Source: an uncultured Dehalococcoidia bacterium (GTDB lineage Bacteria > Chloroflexota > Dehalococcoidia > Lucifugimonadales > UBA3495). From it: a DNA stretch of 64,000 bases. Made by a program: the position numbers and the translations under genes. Each line of letters starts with the position of its first letter. Position 1 is the stretch's first letter. Positions 11,673 through 62,713 of the stretch are shown here, one piece after another. The DNA is taken from positions 1,323 through 65,322 of the forward strand of contig CAYFGT010000001.1 in assembly GCA_964343075.1 (NCBI GenBank), written 5' to 3'. The notes beneath the pieces were generated by a model. It saw only the letters and a program-made list of their open reading frames with translations. It was not told where the DNA came from and ran no database searches.

Positions 11673-11715
11673 TATCATATCGCTATTGTGAAATAAGTGT
11701 TTGCGGAGGTGCGGT

Positions 11716-12240
11716 GTGGACATTATAAATATACTTGATAGATTAGAAACTTTAGTTAATTCTAGTAAAAAGGTGCCATATACTAACAGCGCCATAATAG
11801 ATCGAAAAAAAATTCTTGATTTACTAGATCAAATGAGACTAAATATCCCACAAGAAATTAAAGAAGCAAGTGAAATTTTGTTTCAGAAAGATCAGATCAT
11901 TAACACAGCAGTCATGGAAGCTAGAGCATCCAAATCAGAAGCAGAAGCAGAATTCATGTCTAAGCTTAATCAATCGGCTTTGCAGCAGAAAGCAGAAGAA
12001 TTATTCGCTGATGCAGATAGAAAAACTCAGAAACAAATAGAACAAGTCACAAAAGAATGTATGGCTATACGTATTGAGGCAGATTCGTATGCTCTCAAGA
12101 GTTTGCGTGATTTAGAGCAAGAGCTTACAAAAATATCGGGTTCTGTCAGAAAGGGTATTGAATTACTTGCGAAGAACGCTAGCAATGCCCAAAACAATGT
12201 GATTTCTGAGCAAGTAGCAGTTAATCAAGCTGCTGATTAA
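11716..12240 (+). CDS. conserved coiled-coil protein (DivIVA / 'ATPase subunit H-like' hypothetical family)
   Basis: GGAGG (11705-11709) lies 6 nt before GTG 11716. The N-terminal DIINILDRLETLVNSSKKVP...KILDLLDQMRLNIPQEIKEA is followed by a long Glu/Lys/Ala/Gln-rich helix. Function unknown. Confidence 0.65.
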   Translation: MDIINILDRLETLVNSSKKVPYTNSAIIDRKKILDLLDQMRLNIPQEIKEASEILFQKDQIINTAVMEARASKSEAEAEFMSKLNQSALQQKAEELFADADRKTQKQIEQVTKECMAIRIEADSYALKSLRDLEQELTKISGSVRKGIELLAKNASNAQNNVISEQVAVNQAAD

Positions 12241-12324: not shown

Positions 12325-12867
12325 ATGCTTGAAATGACCATTGATAGTATACGAGTAAGCCCGATGAATTATCAAAGAATTGTCATTCTAAAGCAGAAAG
12401 ATGGTGATAAATTCCTCCCTATATGGATAGGGCCTCAAGAGGCAGATGCCATAGCTGTAAAATTACAAGATATGTCAGTGCCTAGGCCGTTGACTCATGA
12501 CCTCCTATGCTCGTTTTTAAGTATTGCATCCGCAACCGTGCAGCATGTGCTAATTAATAATTTAGAAAGTGATACATTCTATGCTAGGATTTTTTTTCAA
12601 ATTGGAGAAAAAGTAGAAGAGATAGATTCAAGACCATCTGATGCCATAGCATTGGCGGTGAGAATTGGTGTTCCCATTTACGTTGAAGAAGAGGTTATCG
12701 AAAAGGCAGGTGTTAAATTGGACGACCAAGGTAAGCCAATAAGTCCGCCTCAAGGAGAGAATCCGGAAAACACACCTGTTCGAGAAGAAGAACTCAAAAG
12801 TATGTCGGCATTCACAGATTTCATAAACAACCTGGATTTGGAAGACTTCGATCAAACCAAGGATTAA
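12325..12867 (+). CDS. bifunctional nuclease (BFN/DUF151) domain protein
   Basis: PIWIGPQEADAIAVKL...PRPLTHDLL...IDSRPSDAIALAVRIGVPIYV is the characteristic DUF151 pattern. The C-terminal tail is acidic. Confidence 0.8.
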   Translation: MLEMTIDSIRVSPMNYQRIVILKQKDGDKFLPIWIGPQEADAIAVKLQDMSVPRPLTHDLLCSFLSIASATVQHVLINNLESDTFYARIFFQIGEKVEEIDSRPSDAIALAVRIGVPIYVEEEVIEKAGVKLDDQGKPISPPQGENPENTPVREEELKSMSAFTDFINNLDLEDFDQTKD

Positions 12868-12989: not shown

Positions 12990-13196
12990 GTGGTAATGCC
13001 TAAATTTGTGGTAGCATTAAAATTCACCGGTTTAGGCTGGTATATTGCGCTTTGCATAGTATGTGGAACGGTCTTAGGAATAGGCCTAGATAGATGGAGT
13101 GGTTTAAGCCCTCTCTTTACACTCATAGGAGTTTTAACAGGCTCCATAGTGGCGTTCTGGGGTCTGATTAAGATGGTAAAACAGTTTATAAAATAG
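12990..13196 (+). CDS. atpI: AtpZ/AtpI-like small membrane protein of the ATP synthase operon
   Basis: 68 aa with two TM helices: LGWYIALCIVCGTVLGIGLD.W...PLFTLIGVLTGSIVAFWGL. It sits directly upstream of atpB. The start could be GTG 12990 or ATG 12996. Confidence 0.7.
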   Translation: MVMPKFVVALKFTGLGWYIALCIVCGTVLGIGLDRWSGLSPLFTLIGVLTGSIVAFWGLIKMVKQFIK

Positions 13197-13210
13197 TAGG
13201 TGAGAGGGAT

Positions 13211-14275
13211 TTGGCTAGTTCGAAAAAAATGATCAAGTACCTGGTGATTGCTATCATCGTAGCGTTGCTAATAACAGGGTTCATCAATGGAGCAATTGGA
13301 TCATCGATTTTCGGGCAAGAACGTTTTCTAGAAAAACCCCACATTAGTCTTCCTCCTCAACCAGTTTTCCCCCAATCTGTGAGAGATCATCACCTAGGGT
13401 ACTCTGATGACCATGGTTACTCTGATTCACATGGAGATACCCACGACAACAAATATGCTCATTATGCTGATACTGATAAAGATTCTCATGGCTCTGGTCA
13501 TGGAGAAAGTGGTAAAGATGCCCATTCAGACGAAGGACATCACTCAACCCCACTTGGGCTTATGGACTTTGCAGTAACAAACACCATGATTTCAGCGTGG
13601 TTCGCTTCAATTGTAATTATTCTAATATTCGTTCTAGGGGCCAGGAAAAAAGCTTTAATTCCAGGAAGATTTCAAAGTTTGGTAGAGATCATGTTTGAGG
13701 GAGTACTAGGGTTCGCTAGCAGCGTATTAGGTCGCGAAATGGCTCGTAAAGTGTTCCCTGTTATCGCGACTATATTTTTCTTTGTTTTGTTTAACGCGTG
13801 GTTAGCACTTCTGCCTTTCTATCAATTCTTAGGATTTGTTAATGATTCCGGTACCATCGAAGCACATTTTATAAGGCCTGCTGGTACTGATTTAAATATG
13901 CCTTTAGCTTTAGGTCTCGTTTCTTTCGTTTTGGTCGAATACTGGGGTATTAAATCACATGGTATTGGTTATTTTAAGAAATTTTTTGCGTTCGGAAAAA
14001 TATTACGAGGGAAACCTTCTGGAATCATAGATGTATTTGTTGGATTACTTGAATTCATTAGCGAACTAGTTAGGATTGTTAGTTTTACGTTTAGGTTATT
14101 CGGTAATATGACAGCAGGAGAAATACTTGTTGTTATGGTAACGTTCTTAGTCCCATTCATAGCTACTCAGTTTGTGTTTGGGCTCGAATTGCTAGTAGGT
14201 TTAATACAATCAATTATCTTTGCTGGTTTGACTTTAGTATTTATATCCGTCGCTACCAGTCATGAAGAACATTAA
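13211..14275 (+). CDS. atpB: F0F1 ATP synthase subunit a with ~115-aa N-terminal extension
   Basis: The C-terminal ~240 aa are canonical: ...LRLFGNMTAGEIL... with the essential Arg, and 5 TM helices. A TTG start lies 7 nt after AGGTGA. The extension has one TM helix plus a His/Asp-rich segment. Confidence 0.9.
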   Translation: MASSKKMIKYLVIAIIVALLITGFINGAIGSSIFGQERFLEKPHISLPPQPVFPQSVRDHHLGYSDDHGYSDSHGDTHDNKYAHYADTDKDSHGSGHGESGKDAHSDEGHHSTPLGLMDFAVTNTMISAWFASIVIILIFVLGARKKALIPGRFQSLVEIMFEGVLGFASSVLGREMARKVFPVIATIFFFVLFNAWLALLPFYQFLGFVNDSGTIEAHFIRPAGTDLNMPLALGLVSFVLVEYWGIKSHGIGYFKKFFAFGKILRGKPSGIIDVFVGLLEFISELVRIVSFTFRLFGNMTAGEILVVMVTFLVPFIATQFVFGLELLVGLIQSIIFAGLTLVFISVATSHEEH

Positions 14276-14373: not shown

Positions 14374-14604
14374 ATGGAAGCTGAAGCAGCTAAATTTCTG
14401 GGAGCAGCTCTTGCTATTGCATTAGGAGTTGTAGGACCAGGAGTAGGTATAGGAATATTGGGAGCAGGAGCTATGGGAGCAATCGGCAGAAATCCTGAAG
14501 CAGCTGGCTCAATCACTACTAATATGATTCTAGCAATTGCATTCGCAGAAGCATTAGGTATTTACTCACTAATTGTTGCAGTGATACTTCTGTTCGTTGT
14601 TTAA
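14374..14604 (+). CDS. atpE: F0F1 ATP synthase subunit c
   Basis: 76-aa hairpin with a GxGxGxG helix 1, a GRNPEA loop and a carboxylate in AFAEALGIY. Confidence 0.95.
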   Translation: MEAEAAKFLGAALAIALGVVGPGVGIGILGAGAMGAIGRNPEAAGSITTNMILAIAFAEALGIYSLIVAVILLFVV

Positions 14605-14637: not shown

Positions 14638-15138
14638 ATGACTGAGCTAGGGTTAAACATTCCTAGTCTGGTCGCATATCTAATTAACTTCGTCGTACTG
14701 TTGGGGATTTTACTTGTTTTTGCATACAAGCCATTAATAAGCGCAATTGACCAACGAGCGGAGAAGATTCGTGAGAGCTTGGAAGCAGCGGACAAAGCTC
14801 AAGAAGATGCGGATAATTCAAGAGCGGAAATTCAGGCTCAAATAAATGAAGCAAGAATCGAAGCTCAAAAGATATTAGATCAGGCACGTAGCGCGGCAGA
14901 CCGATTCAGAGACGAACGGATGGCACAAGCTCAAGAGGAAGCAATAGCATTTACCGAAAGGGCTAAATCGGATATTGAATCCGAACGAGATTCTGCGATA
15001 AGAGAGCTTAAAGAGAATTTTGGAGAATTGGCTATCGACGCTGCTGAAGCCGTCGTTAAGAAATCACTAGATGCTAAGAGTCATAAAGATTTGATAGATC
15101 AAATCTTGGAAGAAAGCAGTACTGTTGGTGGTAAATAA
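14638..15138 (+). CDS. atpF: F0F1 ATP synthase subunit b
   Basis: N-terminal TM helix followed by a long charged helix. Operon position supports the call. AAGGAGG SD. Confidence 0.9.
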   Translation: MTELGLNIPSLVAYLINFVVLLGILLVFAYKPLISAIDQRAEKIRESLEAADKAQEDADNSRAEIQAQINEARIEAQKILDQARSAADRFRDERMAQAQEEAIAFTERAKSDIESERDSAIRELKENFGELAIDAAEAVVKKSLDAKSHKDLIDQILEESSTVGGK

Positions 15139-15677
15139 TGGCAATAGGTAGGTCAGGAATTAGGTATGCTCAGGCATTGTTCGAACTTGCCTCTCAGGAA
15201 GATAAACATGAGGAATGGTTGGCGGAGTTGAAGGAAGTCGAAGAGGTACTAAGCAACTCAGATTTTCAGGGCTTGCTTAATCATGCTGAAGTATCTGTCG
15301 AACAGAAGCACTCTGCCGTACAAGAAGCATTCCACGACAATCACCCAATGATAAAGAATTTGGTTTTGTTGTTGATTAAAAACTCCGTTATTGATTGTAT
15401 CAACGATTTGGTGGAAAGTTATGAAGATCTGCTGGATGTTCATTTTGGTAGGCAAAGAATAGCGATCACTACGGCAGTCAAACTGAACGCCAGTCAAGTA
15501 AAGTCAATGACGCAGGTGGTTAAGAAAATTGTGGATAAAGAAGTGGTTCTCGACACACATGTTGATGAATCAATTATTGGCGGAGTGGTCATAAAGATTG
15601 GAGATCAACTACTTGACGGTAGTATTAAAACTCAATTGGATGACATGAGGAAAGCAATCAAATCAGGTGTTATTTAA
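15138..15677 (+). CDS. atpH: F0F1 ATP synthase subunit delta
   Basis: 179 aa. YAQALFELA N-terminus and a GGVVIKIGDQLLDGSIKTQL C-terminus. 1-nt overlap with atpF. Confidence 0.9.
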   Translation: MAIGRSGIRYAQALFELASQEDKHEEWLAELKEVEEVLSNSDFQGLLNHAEVSVEQKHSAVQEAFHDNHPMIKNLVLLLIKNSVIDCINDLVESYEDLLDVHFGRQRIAITTAVKLNASQVKSMTQVVKKIVDKEVVLDTHVDESIIGGVVIKIGDQLLDGSIKTQLDDMRKAIKSGVI

Positions 15678-15724: not shown

Positions 15725-17233
15725 ATGGCTATAAATGGACAAGAAATAGTTTCTTTACTGAAACGACAGATTGAAGAGTTTGGCGGAGATTTATCACTTG
15801 TTGACGTTGGAACTGTTGTACAAGTAGGTGACGGTATTGCCAGTATTCAAGGATTACAAGGGGTTCGATCTAACGAACTTCTTGATTTTGGGGAAGATAT
15901 AGTCGGACTGGCATTGAACTTGGAGTCAGATATCGTGGGTGCTGCTATATTGGGAGATCCAAACGCTGTCAAAGAAGGAGATACTGTTAGAGCGACAGGT
16001 CGGATTATTGAAGTACCAGTGGGAGATGCGTTAATAGGGAGAGTGGTTGATCCTCTGGGTCGCCCACTTGACGGTAAAGGAGCAGTAAACACTGATAAAA
16101 CCCTGCCAGTTGAGAGAGTTGCTCCTAACGTTGCAGTCAGAAAATCGGTTTCTACCCCTGTATTGACTGGTGTGAAAGCTGTAGATTCAATGGTACCGAT
16201 AGGCCGAGGGCAAAGAGAATTAATCATCGGCGATAGATCCACTGGGAAAACAGCGATTGCAATTGATGCAATTATTAATCAAAAAGGCGGTGATCTAATC
16301 TGCATTTATGTAGCTATAGGTCAGAAGCAAAGTAAAGTGTCAGAAGTGGTGGGGGCATTAGATAGATATGGTGCTATGGAACACACTATAGTCGTAACGG
16401 CTGGTGCATCTGAATCTGCACCATTACAATACATCGCTCCCTTTGCAGGATGTGCTATGGCAGAAGAGTTTATGGAACAAGGTAAAGATGTATTGATAGT
16501 TTATGACGACCTGACAAAACATTCTTGGGCTTACCGGCAAATGTCATTGCTGCTACGAAGACCGGCAGGCAGAGAAGCTTTCCCTGGAGACGTGTTTTAT
16601 GTACATAGTAGACTTCTCGAACGAGCTGCACGTCTAGATGATGAGCATGGTGGGGGGTCTATCACAGCACTGCCCGTGATAGAAACTCAAGCTGGTGATG
16701 TATCTGCATACATACCAACAAACGTTATCTCTATAACTGACGGCCAAATTTTCTTGGAATCCGATTTGTTCAACTCTGGAATACGACCAGCGATCAATGT
16801 GGGCCTTTCGGTGTCCAGAGTCGGTAGCTCTGCTCAAACAAGATCAGTTAAGAAAGTTGCAGGGAGTTTGAGGATCGACTTAGCCCAATATAGAGAATTG
16901 GCAACCTTCGCCCAGTTTGGGACTTCTGATTTAGATGCTGCAACACGGCAACAATTAAGCCAAGGCCAGATGGCAGTCGAAGTTTTGAAACAGCCTCAAT
17001 ATCTACCATTAAACCTAGTACAAGAGACTATTATTTTGTATGCATTGAATGCTAGACATACTGAAGGCATTGAATTAGAACGAGTGGCTGATTTTGAAAA
17101 TCAACTGGTTAGACATGTAGAAGCTAGTCATCCAGATATTGTGGAAGACATAAATAAAACCACCGATTTGACTGATGAGACAGAAGAAAAATTATCTAAA
17201 GTCATTCAAGATTTCAAATCGACTTTTGTATAA
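15725..17233 (+). CDS. atpA: F0F1 ATP synthase subunit alpha
   Basis: GDRSTGKT Walker A. Full-length collinearity over 502 aa. Confidence 0.97.
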
Positions 17234-17253: not shown

Positions 17254-18114
17254 ATGCCAAGCGTAAGAGACATAAAGCGACGAATCCGAAGCATAGAAAA
17301 TACAGGCCAAGTTACGAATGCTATGGCCTTGATCGCTGCGTCTAAAATGGCCAGAGCTCAAAATGCAGTGCAATCTAGTAGGCCATATGAAGAAAAGATA
17401 ACGTCAGTAGTGACATCTTTATCAGCGCAAGTCAGTGGAGGAGAAAATAGTCATCCACTTTTGGAAGAAAGGGAAGTTACAAAGATCGGATTGGTAGTAA
17501 TAGGACCTGACAGAGGTCTCTGCGGGGGATTGATTTCAAATTTGAATAGGAATGTTGCTTCTTTTATCAATGGTGTAGAACACGAAATAATTCCAATTGC
17601 CGTGGGAAGAAAATCAAGAGATGTACTCAGTAGATGTGGATTGAATCCTGAAAATTCTTTCTCTGATCTAGGAGATCGGATAGAGAAATCCGATACTGAA
17701 CCGATCAGCAAACTGCTGATGGAACAGTATGAATCTAGAGAAATTGATACTATGTATGTCGCGTATAGCAAATTTGTGTCAACTACAACGCAAGAACCTG
17801 TAGTTGAAAAGATAATTCCTCTTCAAGTAGATGAGAGCCATAGTGGAGGCACCTCGGATTATATATATGAACCAAGTACTGAGATGGTGCTTGGTGGTTT
17901 GATACCCAGGTATGTAGACATGAAAGTATTTCATGCAGTCCAAGAAGCGATCGCAAGTGAACTTTCTGCAAGAATGGTGGCGATGCGAAATGCCACTGAT
18001 AATGCCAAAAGCTTAGGTGATGATTTGACGGTGGTTATGAATAAGTTACGTCAAGATAGCATTACTAACGAATTGCTCGATTTAGTTGGAGGACAAGCTG
18101 CACTGGAACAATAA
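17254..18114 (+). CDS. atpG: F0F1 ATP synthase subunit gamma
   Basis: IKRRIRSIENTGQVTNAM N-terminus and ITNELLDLVGG C-terminus. Confidence 0.95.
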   Translation: MPSVRDIKRRIRSIENTGQVTNAMALIAASKMARAQNAVQSSRPYEEKITSVVTSLSAQVSGGENSHPLLEEREVTKIGLVVIGPDRGLCGGLISNLNRNVASFINGVEHEIIPIAVGRKSRDVLSRCGLNPENSFSDLGDRIEKSDTEPISKLLMEQYESREIDTMYVAYSKFVSTTTQEPVVEKIIPLQVDESHSGGTSDYIYEPSTEMVLGGLIPRYVDMKVFHAVQEAIASELSARMVAMRNATDNAKSLGDDLTVVMNKLRQDSITNELLDLVGGQAALEQ

Positions 18115-18148: not shown

Positions 18149-19549
<1,401 letters not shown>

Positions 19550-19567: not shown

Positions 19568-19825
19568 ATGAGTACTACACATGTTGAAATAATAACTCTT
19601 GAAAAAGTGGTTTATTCTGGGGATGTGGAATCCGTGGTTGTACCTGGCGCCGAGGGTCAGCTGGGGATTTTAGCTAATCATGCATCCTTGATGTCTATAT
19701 TATCAAATGGAATTATCCGGCTTAAGTCTGCAGATGATGAAACAAGATTCAACGTCGATGGTGGATTCATAGAGGTGAACAACAACGCTGTCACTATATT
19801 AGCAGATTCATGCGAGGCTATTTAA
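19568..19825 (+). CDS. atpC: F0F1 ATP synthase subunit epsilon, N-terminal beta-sandwich domain only
   Basis: 85 aa. Includes VVVPGAEGQLGILANHASLMS...DGGFIEV..NAVTILAD. The ORF stops where the two C-terminal helices normally begin. Confidence 0.85.
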   Translation: MSTTHVEIITLEKVVYSGDVESVVVPGAEGQLGILANHASLMSILSNGIIRLKSADDETRFNVDGGFIEVNNNAVTILADSCEAI

Positions 19826-62636: not shown

Positions 62637-62713
62637 TGGTGGGCGATAGTGGACTCGAACCACTGACCTCTTGCGTGTCGAGCAAGTACTCTAACCAGCT
62701 GAGCTAATCGCCC
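62637..62713 (-). tRNA. tRNA-Val (anticodon GAC), CCA encoded
   Basis: The reverse complement folds as a cloverleaf: acceptor GGGCGAT/ATCGCCC, D arm GCTC-AGCTGGTTA-GAGT, anticodon arm CTTGC-TCGACAC-GCAAG, variable AGGTC, T arm AGTGG-TTCGAGT-CCACT, then A73 and CCA. Confidence 0.9.

Follow-up and report, generated by a model that had tools for sequence, protein, structure and literature searches.

The window analysed here, a stretch of 64,000 nucleotides from an uncultured Dehalococcoidia bacterium (contig CAYFGT010000001.1), carries a complete atp operon in the order atpI-like, atpB, atpE, atpF, atpH, atpA, atpG, atpD and atpC (Table 1). Its atpB gene encodes subunit a of the F-type ATP synthase, with about 117 residues standing ahead of the canonical a-subunit. 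This extension consists of an extra hydrophobic transmembrane (TM) helix, here called TMH0, a short His-bearing strand and an acidic, His-rich insert of about 60 residues in this genome that is predicted to be disordered. Helix and strand are old features shared by many Chloroflexota; the insert may serve as an antenna for protons entering the enzyme.

The protein is a bona fide a-subunit, as shown by its Pfam match, its essential arginine, its fold and its position in the operon. PF00119 is matched over residues 126-346 only, where the score of 140.2 bits clears the cut-off of 33.9, and Arg295 (AGG, 14093-14095) lies in the motif RLFGNM ('FRLFGNMTAGE'). This residue is invariant in 118/118 relatives of the alignment from which all position counts below are taken (118 sequences, 46-90% identity to the window protein). 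A model built with AlphaFold2 (AF2) on these 118 diverse sequences reaches a predicted local distance difference test (pLDDT) of 81.8 and a predicted template-modelling score (pTM) of 0.75 and is the one used here; an earlier run on 45 close relatives had yielded a poor model (pLDDT 60.7, pTM 0.31). Foldseek matches the model to a-subunits of Chloroflexus, chloroplast, Mycobacterium, E. coli and Bacillus PS3, and it contains the one TM helix and two long membrane hairpins by which subunit a is recognized. The equivalog cut-offs of NCBIfam are not reached (NF004481: 112.8 against 227 bits; TIGR01131: 94.3 against 102.6 bits). Several close relatives are deposited as 'hypothetical protein' (HCG90791.1, MBN41547.1, MQG81039.1), probably because of such sub-threshold scores. 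This is also of practical concern: the extension drags these AtpB proteins under the cut-offs.

The start codon of atpB is a TTG at 13211, and the identical protein P0001 is called from the same TTG. The sequence AGGTGA is found 7 nt 5' of it, whereas the alternative ATG at 13229 is without such a stretch. In relatives the start lies three codons farther 5' (M/V-R-D-L-A-S-S-K-K) or is an ATG replacing the TTG; since the upstream position reads GAG in the window, translation is left to begin at TTG 13211 (or ATG 13229). The atpI-like gene stops 15 nt before the TTG.

The segment that had drawn attention in an earlier sequence-only reading of this DNA separates TMH0 from the canonical first helix. 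That reading had counted 11 His and 11 Asp in the 53 residues D59-H111 (nt 13385-13543), and a recount gives exactly these numbers. Against a background of 2.15% His and 5.6% Asp in the long open reading frames of the window, the binomial probabilities are 1.5e-8 and 1.4e-4, respectively, and no comparably His-rich real coding segment occurs elsewhere in the window. The near-repeat it had pointed out, GYSDDHGYSDSHG, corresponds to an 18-nt tandem repeat of 1.9 copies at 13400-13434. Likewise, Pfam, hydropathy and conservation bear out that the a-subunit is of the F type and that its additional N-terminal hydrophobic helix is genuine, with the His/Asp-rich segment placed between that helix and the canonical first one. 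Residues 59-117 as a whole comprise 11 His and 13 acidic residues and carry a net charge of -10.

Table 1. Features of the atpB locus and further features of the window; positions are those of the window, codons those of atpB.
Feature	Position	Strand	Basis
AtpI/AtpZ-type small membrane protein (PF09527, ATPase_gene1), first gene of the atp operon	12990-13196	+	Pfam, E 2.3e-11
Shine-Dalgarno-like purine-rich stretch AGGTGAGAGGGA before the TTG	13198-13209	+	read from sequence
atpB, F-type ATP synthase subunit a, 354 aa including N-terminal extension	13211-14275	+	open reading frame, Pfam/NCBIfam matches
Basic n-region MASSKKMIK, codons 1-9, net +3, presumably cytoplasmic	13211-13237	+	charge count
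TMH0, extra N-terminal hydrophobic helix, codons 10-34; putative signal-anchor or cleavable signal	13238-13312	+	hydropathy
Outer-face strand motif PHISLPPQPVFP, codons 43-54	13337-13372	+	conservation, alignment to Chloroflexus
Proximal insert base QSVRDHHLG, codons 55-63, short helix	13373-13399	+	conservation; AF2 helix 55-62
Insert core, codons 64-108: variable, predicted disordered, acidic, His-rich	13400-13534	+	AF2, dN, composition
18-nt tandem duplication (x1.9) encoding YSDDHG/YSDSHG	13400-13434	+	Tandem Repeats Finder score 49, 82% matches
Distal insert base GHHSTPLGL, codons 109-117; H111, P114, L115 conserved	13535-13561	+	conservation
Canonical first TM helix aH1, codons 118-145, then RKK (cytoplasmic side)	13562-13645	+	hydropathy
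Canonical a-subunit domain PF00119 (ATP-synt_A), residues 126-346	13586-14248	+	Pfam, E 1.2e-40
atpE	14374-14604	+	Pfam
atpF	14638-15138	+	Pfam
atpH (delta)	15138-15677	+	Pfam
atpA	15725-17233	+	Pfam
atpG	17254-18114	+	Pfam
atpD	18158-19549	+	Pfam
atpC (epsilon), short	19568-19825	+	Pfam
Upstream of operon: bifunctional-nuclease-domain protein	12325-12867	+	PF02577, E 1.6e-40
Upstream of operon: 179-aa coiled-coil-like open reading frame	11701-12240	+	no Pfam match
tRNA gene	62640-62713	-	lone Rfam match at gathering threshold in the window

Judged from the alignment and the model, the insert sits at the turn of an N-terminal hairpin on the outer face, between two short strands. Its proximal base (R58, L62 and G63) is conserved in the SAR202-type clade and its distal base aligns with the 'GHH' of mycobacterial a-subunits, while the pLDDT is below 50 for residues 74-103 of the core. 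When the extension alone is compared to Pfam no domain is found (the sole match is a sub-threshold ArsP_1 in TMH0, E 0.036), and a profile of the N-terminus yields only chance low-complexity matches among PDB sequences (best E 0.029).

The helix and strand ahead of the insert are far more uniform among relatives. Residues 10-34 form, jointly with the canonical first helix, the strongest Kyte-Doolittle peak, and AF2 predicts a helix over residues 2-34 at a pLDDT of 84-92. K or R occupies alignment positions 6-7 in nearly all relatives. Within TMH0, G23 and G27 are found in 118/118 sequences, G30 in 114/118 and L19 in 111/118; these four residues share one face of the helix. Mean pairwise identity is 0.44, against 0.46 for the structural helix aH2. 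In the strand motif P43 is present in 117/118 sequences and a His at position 44 or 46 in 111/118. His44 (13340-13342) aligns with the inlet-lining His31 of Chloroflexus ('PPH31VEVAAEVIF'); in the window the His directly follows the Pro (P43-H44), as in Chloroflexus, whereas most relatives have it two positions later on the same strand face. The model shows a strand at residues 51-53 (pLDDT 79-91) and another at 122-123, followed by a helix over 124-145. The 'P-(E)-I-H-L-P-P-Q-x-V-F' strand is thus predicted to pair with the 'F-A-V-T-N-T' strand just before aH1, where T123, N124, T125 and W130 are nearly invariant (N124 in 117/118).

A basic tip, a hydrophobic helix, G-x3-G-A-(I/V)-G-A and 'PEVHLAPQ.IF.LGGF.VTNTLLSAW' are also seen in short-form AtpB proteins of Chloroflexota (289-313 aa), which have no insert between the strands. 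Because these short forms possess both elements, and because both are conserved across the 118-sequence alignment, TMH0 and the His strand are ancestral and common to many Chloroflexota, including, at the sequence level, the solved enzyme of Chloroflexus. The extra helix is therefore not special to the window protein.

The extension as a whole is widely retained among close relatives. A search of 5.8 billion proteins yields thousands of matches to the window AtpB; every one of the 120 best, which are 322-362 aa long and 62-100% identical, has the extension, and those that are named belong to SAR202, Dehalococcoidia or Chloroflexi. Scanning one genome per GTDB species with an alignment of the N-terminus shows that at least 160 genomes encode it. 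The lineage comparison of AtpB N-termini that had been proposed as a check thus finds the extension in both sets. The 80 loci retained carry titles of Dehalococcoidia, SAR202 or Chloroflexota, except for one 'uncultured bacterium'. When an N-terminus profile is run against 1.84 billion cluster representatives only 60 clusters are retrieved, and the extension is therefore lineage-restricted. An identical AtpB protein is present in a JGI sample and in sequencing run ERR599111, which we take to be Tara Oceans data, and close relatives are labelled Tara in the sequence collection. Given these sources, the organism is a pelagic marine, SAR202-type Dehalococcoidia bacterium; the GC content of the window is 40%. 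On the JGI contig with the identical protein the PF09527 gene precedes atpB as well.

Differences are much larger at the hairpin turn itself. Across Chloroflexota the length of the insert ranges from 0 to about 60 aa: AtpB forms of 315-345 aa have 10-40 extra residues at this turn, some with two Cys, and the SAR202-type clade has 37-70. Other Chloroflexota clades (P0217, P0222, P0228, P0230, P0234, P0235, P0238, P0256, P0269) carry differing inserts at the same turn with two Cys each, for example 'C.GG....G..C(D/E)GGF' or 'ECKSDEYVKEDGGCKKYD'. A disulfide probably closes each of these two-Cys loops outside the membrane, which suggests an oxidising, extracytoplasmic location.

Within the SAR202-type clade the insert changes rapidly. 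Because saturation of synonymous sites leaves dS (synonymous substitutions per site) >1 or undefined between the closest genomes, the comparison is made by nonsynonymous substitutions per site (dN) only. Between the window and its three closest genomes dN is 0.05-0.07 for residues 1-63 (TMH0 and motif) and 0.03-0.06 for the core of the subunit, against 0.28-0.43, plus indels, for residues 64-108. The composition of 157 unique inserts is E (13.6%), A (13.0%), G (10.9%), S (9.5%), H (9.0%) and D (8.0%), hydrophobic residues being nearly absent. Scored in 81 genomes, the insert measures 37-70 aa and its net charge ranges from -1 to -13 (median -7), being negative in 81/81; the number of His per insert is 2-12 (median 4). 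Seven genomes with a GC content below 46%, including the window, have 8-12 His, and the remaining genomes 2-7. The very His-rich state is thus restricted to low-GC pelagic clades including this window. Between GC content and His fraction the overall rank correlation is nil (rho 0.00); the His-rich state concerns two low-GC clades rather than a smooth trend. Consequently the His/Asp-rich composition that was first described holds for this low-GC clade, whereas the insert of the family at large is rich in Glu, Ala, Gly and Ser and has a median of 4 His. Overall, the sequence drifts while its acidic, His-containing character persists.

The insert grows by short tandem duplications that arise through slippage, as seen in the 18-nt repeat, a GHGD indel and a duplicated unit in another subclade. 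The indel is seen when comparing P0310 and P0316 to P0305-P0309 (at least 90% identical): 'SDGHGDVHD' against 'SDGHGDGHGDVHD', with one extra GHGD unit, which shows slippage to be ongoing in natural populations. The duplicated unit occurs in a SAR202 subclade (P0017, P0034, P0035) as a tandem copy of 'AEKKEEAA..(D/G)IHFEPL', which is Glu/Lys-rich and not His/Asp-rich and copies the conserved 'H-F-x-P-L' base of the insert.

Where the insert is located with respect to the membrane can be deduced from several lines of evidence. The N-terminus of the a-subunit is established as periplasmic. In the window protein the charge is +3 for residues 1-9, absent from TMH0, -10 (with 11 His) for residues 59-117 and again +3 right after aH1, a pattern that fits an N-terminus inside, a loop outside and aH1 re-entering the membrane. 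Together with the homology to Chloroflexus His31 and the Cys-pair inserts, these observations make the outer (P) side, beside the proton entry channel, a well-supported location for the loop, as the sequence-only reading had supposed. In Chloroflexus the periplasmic inlet half-channel runs through a tunnel of aHis31, aSer131, aGlu258 and aGlu280 (PMC12002316), and the N-terminus aligns as 'ILIIVGALIISIASRFFLYTGPPH31VEVAAEVIFDGIPGFPITNS'. Since the insert begins about 8 residues past the His that matches His31, its base would be at the mouth of the proton inlet, a placement that follows from sequence position and the predicted hairpin rather than from a distance in 3-D.

TMH0 may be either a retained signal-anchor or a cleaved signal. 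Its 'A-I-G-S' fits the -3/-1 rule and the n-h-c layout of a signal peptide is present, yet the stretch has TM length and is strongly conserved. The invariant Gly face, the identity close to that of aH2 (0.44 against 0.46) and the confidently predicted helix favour retention. In Chloroflexus 12-29 terminal residues are unmodelled, by arithmetic on chain counts, which does not settle the fate of TMH0.

How protons get to the mouth of the Fo inlet quickly enough is an old question, for which a 'Coulomb cage' or antenna has been proposed with evidence mainly from E. coli. Such antennas are characterized by carboxylates and His that cluster where a proton pathway begins (compare cytochrome oxidase and the E. 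coli Fo funnel), and such a cluster is found here, its proximity to the inlet being taken from the position in the sequence. Our best guess, with a probability of roughly 0.4, is that the insert is a proton-collecting or electrostatic antenna. The topology behind it stands on firmer ground than the function: TMH0 very probably inserts with its N-end inside and supplies the export signal required by so long and acidic an N-terminal segment, which the Sec/YidC machinery would move across to the outer side. With re-entry of the normal first helix the usual a-subunit topology would result, the loop hanging over the mouth of the proton entry half-channel. There the flexible cluster of carboxylates and imidazoles might lower the local surface pH and capture protons to relay them to the inlet funnel, which would be of use in alkaline seawater and when energy supply is low. 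More tentatively, and rather doubtfully in our view, the insert might be a natural modular entry-side antenna that was selectively expanded in pelagic SAR202 lineages so that the enzyme stays provided with protons in alkaline, energy-poor seawater.

A number of observations argue against an antenna. The role is deduced from composition and position, and the closeness of loop and inlet from sequence position. Substitution in the insert core outpaces that in its flanks by a factor of 6-10, and the length of the core differs even within clusters of at least 90% identity, as would be expected of a spacer under weak constraint too. Many members manage with 2-4 His and some Chloroflexota are without an insert, so that catalysis can do without it. 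A long exported loop could be acidic simply because of the positive-inside rule, and the His-richness could stem from an amplified repeat seed that happened to contain His. Finally, TMH0 may be missing from the mature protein, the Chloroflexus chains being modelled for at most 266/312 residues.

The close and main rival to the antenna, which we regard as possible though not probable, is that the insert is a tolerated low-complexity expansion at a permissive hairpin turn, in which slippage adds and removes units that do nothing for catalysis. The only constraints would be that it is soluble, unstructured and exportable (acidic and poor in Lys/Arg), with TMH0 being of importance for insertion or packing. 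The range of 0 to about 60 aa with unrelated sequences at one site, the core dN of 0.28-0.43 with frequent indels, the 18-nt repeat, the GHGD-unit indel in near-identical relatives, the duplicated 'AEKKEEAA..IHFEPL' unit, the predicted disorder and the limitation of very high His to low-GC clades are all in agreement with this. However, 81/81 SAR202-type genomes keep an insert of 37-70 aa without a single loss, and every one of these inserts is net negative; across the family His is enriched 4-fold, and both bases are conserved (R58, L62, G63; H111, P114, L115). This suggests an anchored loop that is retained for some purpose. The insert could also bind divalent metals, with (D/S)-x-H-G repeats chelating Zn2+, Ni2+, Cu2+, Co2+ and more weakly Ca2+/Mg2+, and so regulate proton entry or serve the neighbouring AtpI/AtpZ-type protein. 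In other enzymes a metal bound at the proton antenna blocks uptake. The 11-13 His of this clade are interleaved with Asp and Gly, and in composition the insert is reminiscent of His-rich loops found in ZnuA, ZIP/CDF and P-type metal transporters, which the ice-worm paper cites as analogues (PMC12035521). The gene upstream belongs to PF09527, in Pfam a putative Ca2+/Mg2+ transporter. Nonetheless, most family members have only 2-4 His in a Glu/Ala-rich context, the His positions of the core are not conserved and the extension matches no known metal-binding domain in Pfam. Free trace metals are moreover extremely scarce in the open ocean. Metal binding is thus possible for this clade but a poor fit for the family, and we consider it unlikely overall.

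Two further explanations concern the N-terminus as such. It might be an assembly leader only, in which TMH0 is a Sec signal cleaved at the -3/-1 site 'G-A-I-G-S' and the segment serves membrane insertion or the timing of assembly, like the leaders of yeast Atp6 and chloroplast AtpI, with no role in the working enzyme. Cleavage of a-subunit leaders is established in yeast and chloroplasts, and the n-h-c layout, the small residues at I29/S31 with a helix-breaking Gly upstream and the 12-29 unmodelled residues in Chloroflexus, which are compatible with a missing TMH0, would suit such a leader. Signal peptides are usually poorly conserved, however, whereas G23 and G27 are invariant (118/118), the conserved residues are on one helical face, the identity of TMH0 approximates that of aH2 and its pLDDT is 84-92. 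In addition, the sequence from residue 43 onward is homologous to modelled, mature residues of Chloroflexus, so that the loop would be kept even if TMH0 were cleaved; a mere leader hence seems improbable. By far the least credible explanation is an annotation or assembly artefact with the true start at Met118. The sequence-only reading had seen no in-frame ATG/GTG with a Shine-Dalgarno sequence near residue 110, a detail to be corrected in that ATGs are present in frame at codons 118 (13562) and 126 (13586), but neither is preceded by a Shine-Dalgarno-like sequence. Most relatives have Thr or some other residue at position 118, the 117 upstream codons are open in more than 160 genomes from independent assemblies and under purifying selection equal to that on the core, and a protein starting at 118 would lose the inlet-lining His motif. 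The internal start at Met118 is refuted by this conservation and by the lack of a Shine-Dalgarno-like sequence.

SAR202 bacteria are among the most abundant cells of the dark ocean, and their ATP synthase is not known to have been studied. Should the insert indeed be an antenna, it might be transplanted to other a-subunits in order to raise synthesis rates at low proton-motive force, like the His-rich tail of the ice worm discussed below. Chloroflexota offer a natural series at one site beside an inlet-lining His, ranging from no insert to short, Cys-bridged, long acidic and very His-rich ones. This makes the antenna idea directly testable with chimeras, and the series at the entry side complements the ice-worm result at the exit side.

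Other subunits of the operon were inspected as well. Na+-coupled c-subunits are recognisable by established Na+-site signatures. The c-subunit motif of the window is 'AFAEALGIY', without Ser/Thr after the Glu, which indicates an H+-coupled enzyme; Na+ coupling was rejected on this motif. With only 85 aa, the epsilon subunit consists of nothing but the beta-sandwich domain (PF02823, E 3.5e-28) and lacks the C-terminal helical domain by which many bacterial ATP synthases are auto-inhibited. The full-length delta subunit (179 aa) can be aligned over its entire length with that of Bacillus PS3, whereas the alignment to the 157-aa delta of Chloroflexus covers residues 67-175 only. The shortened N-domain of delta, proposed to permit two stalks and two a-subunits in Chloroflexi, is a trait not shared here.

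In the literature searched, on the ATP synthase of SAR202 and Dehalococcoidia and on signal peptides of AtpB, no description of this N-terminal feature was found. The novelty suspected for the insertion stands in this respect, but not in general: N-terminal insertions in Acinetobacter and a His-rich ATP6 in ice worms had already been described. N-extensions of about 100 aa exist elsewhere too, as the profiles NF009953/PRK13419 and NF009952/PRK13417 have about 350 positions and their canonical domain starts from position 80-100. The window AtpB is far below their cut-offs (61 against 460 bits for NF009953, 29 against 531 bits for NF009952), and these extensions do not align with that of the window, matches beginning at query residues 108-113.

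The best solved match is the a-subunit of Chloroflexus aurantiacus (PDB 9itj/9itm; PNAS 2025, PMC12002316), with an E-value of 2e-38 by sequence and 9e-11 by Foldseek. It likewise has a hydrophobic N-terminal segment and the His31 strand before aH1. It has no insert at the hairpin turn ('IFDGIPGF'), however, but a 31-aa insertion in the aH3-aH4 linker instead, and its TMH0 is without a GxxxG motif. The Chloroflexus enzyme furthermore has two a-subunits and the shortened delta of 157 aa, against 179 aa in the window. Also related are the short-form AtpB proteins of Chloroflexota and Dehalococcoidia (for instance P0177, 305 aa), which share 46-55% identity as well as a TMH0 with G-x3-G-(A)-(I/V)-G, a 'PE(V/I)HLAPQ' strand and the core, and differ in that the insert is absent or much shorter, with only 'HLGA' or 'IGG' at the turn.

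Functionally, three systems are comparable. In Acinetobacter baumannii an N-terminal insertion of the a-subunit relocates the proton entry (Demmer et al. 2022, PMC8849298). Here too the insertion is specific to a lineage and belongs to the periplasmic N-terminal portion of subunit a, but it repositions a mini-helix in a structured manner, with no extra TM helix and no acidic/His low-complexity sequence. The periplasmic carboxylate/imidazole funnel of E. coli Fo has been proposed as a proton antenna (Yanagisawa & Frasch 2021, reviewed in PMC9447477). As in the window, carboxylates and imidazoles stand at the inlet entrance, there proposed to speed proton delivery, although that funnel is built from folded subunit a and the N-terminus of b instead of a long disordered insert. 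The ice-worm ATP6 carries a disordered His-rich appendage near a proton half-channel, proposed to act as a proton shuttle, and fusing this tail to E. coli AtpB increased ATP synthesis about 5-fold (PMC12035521). Both appendages are not homologous: the ice-worm tail consists of 18 aa with alternating His and is C-terminal, on the exit (matrix, N) side, whereas the insert of the window has about 60 aa, is acidic and internal, follows an extra helix and would be placed on the entry (P) side.

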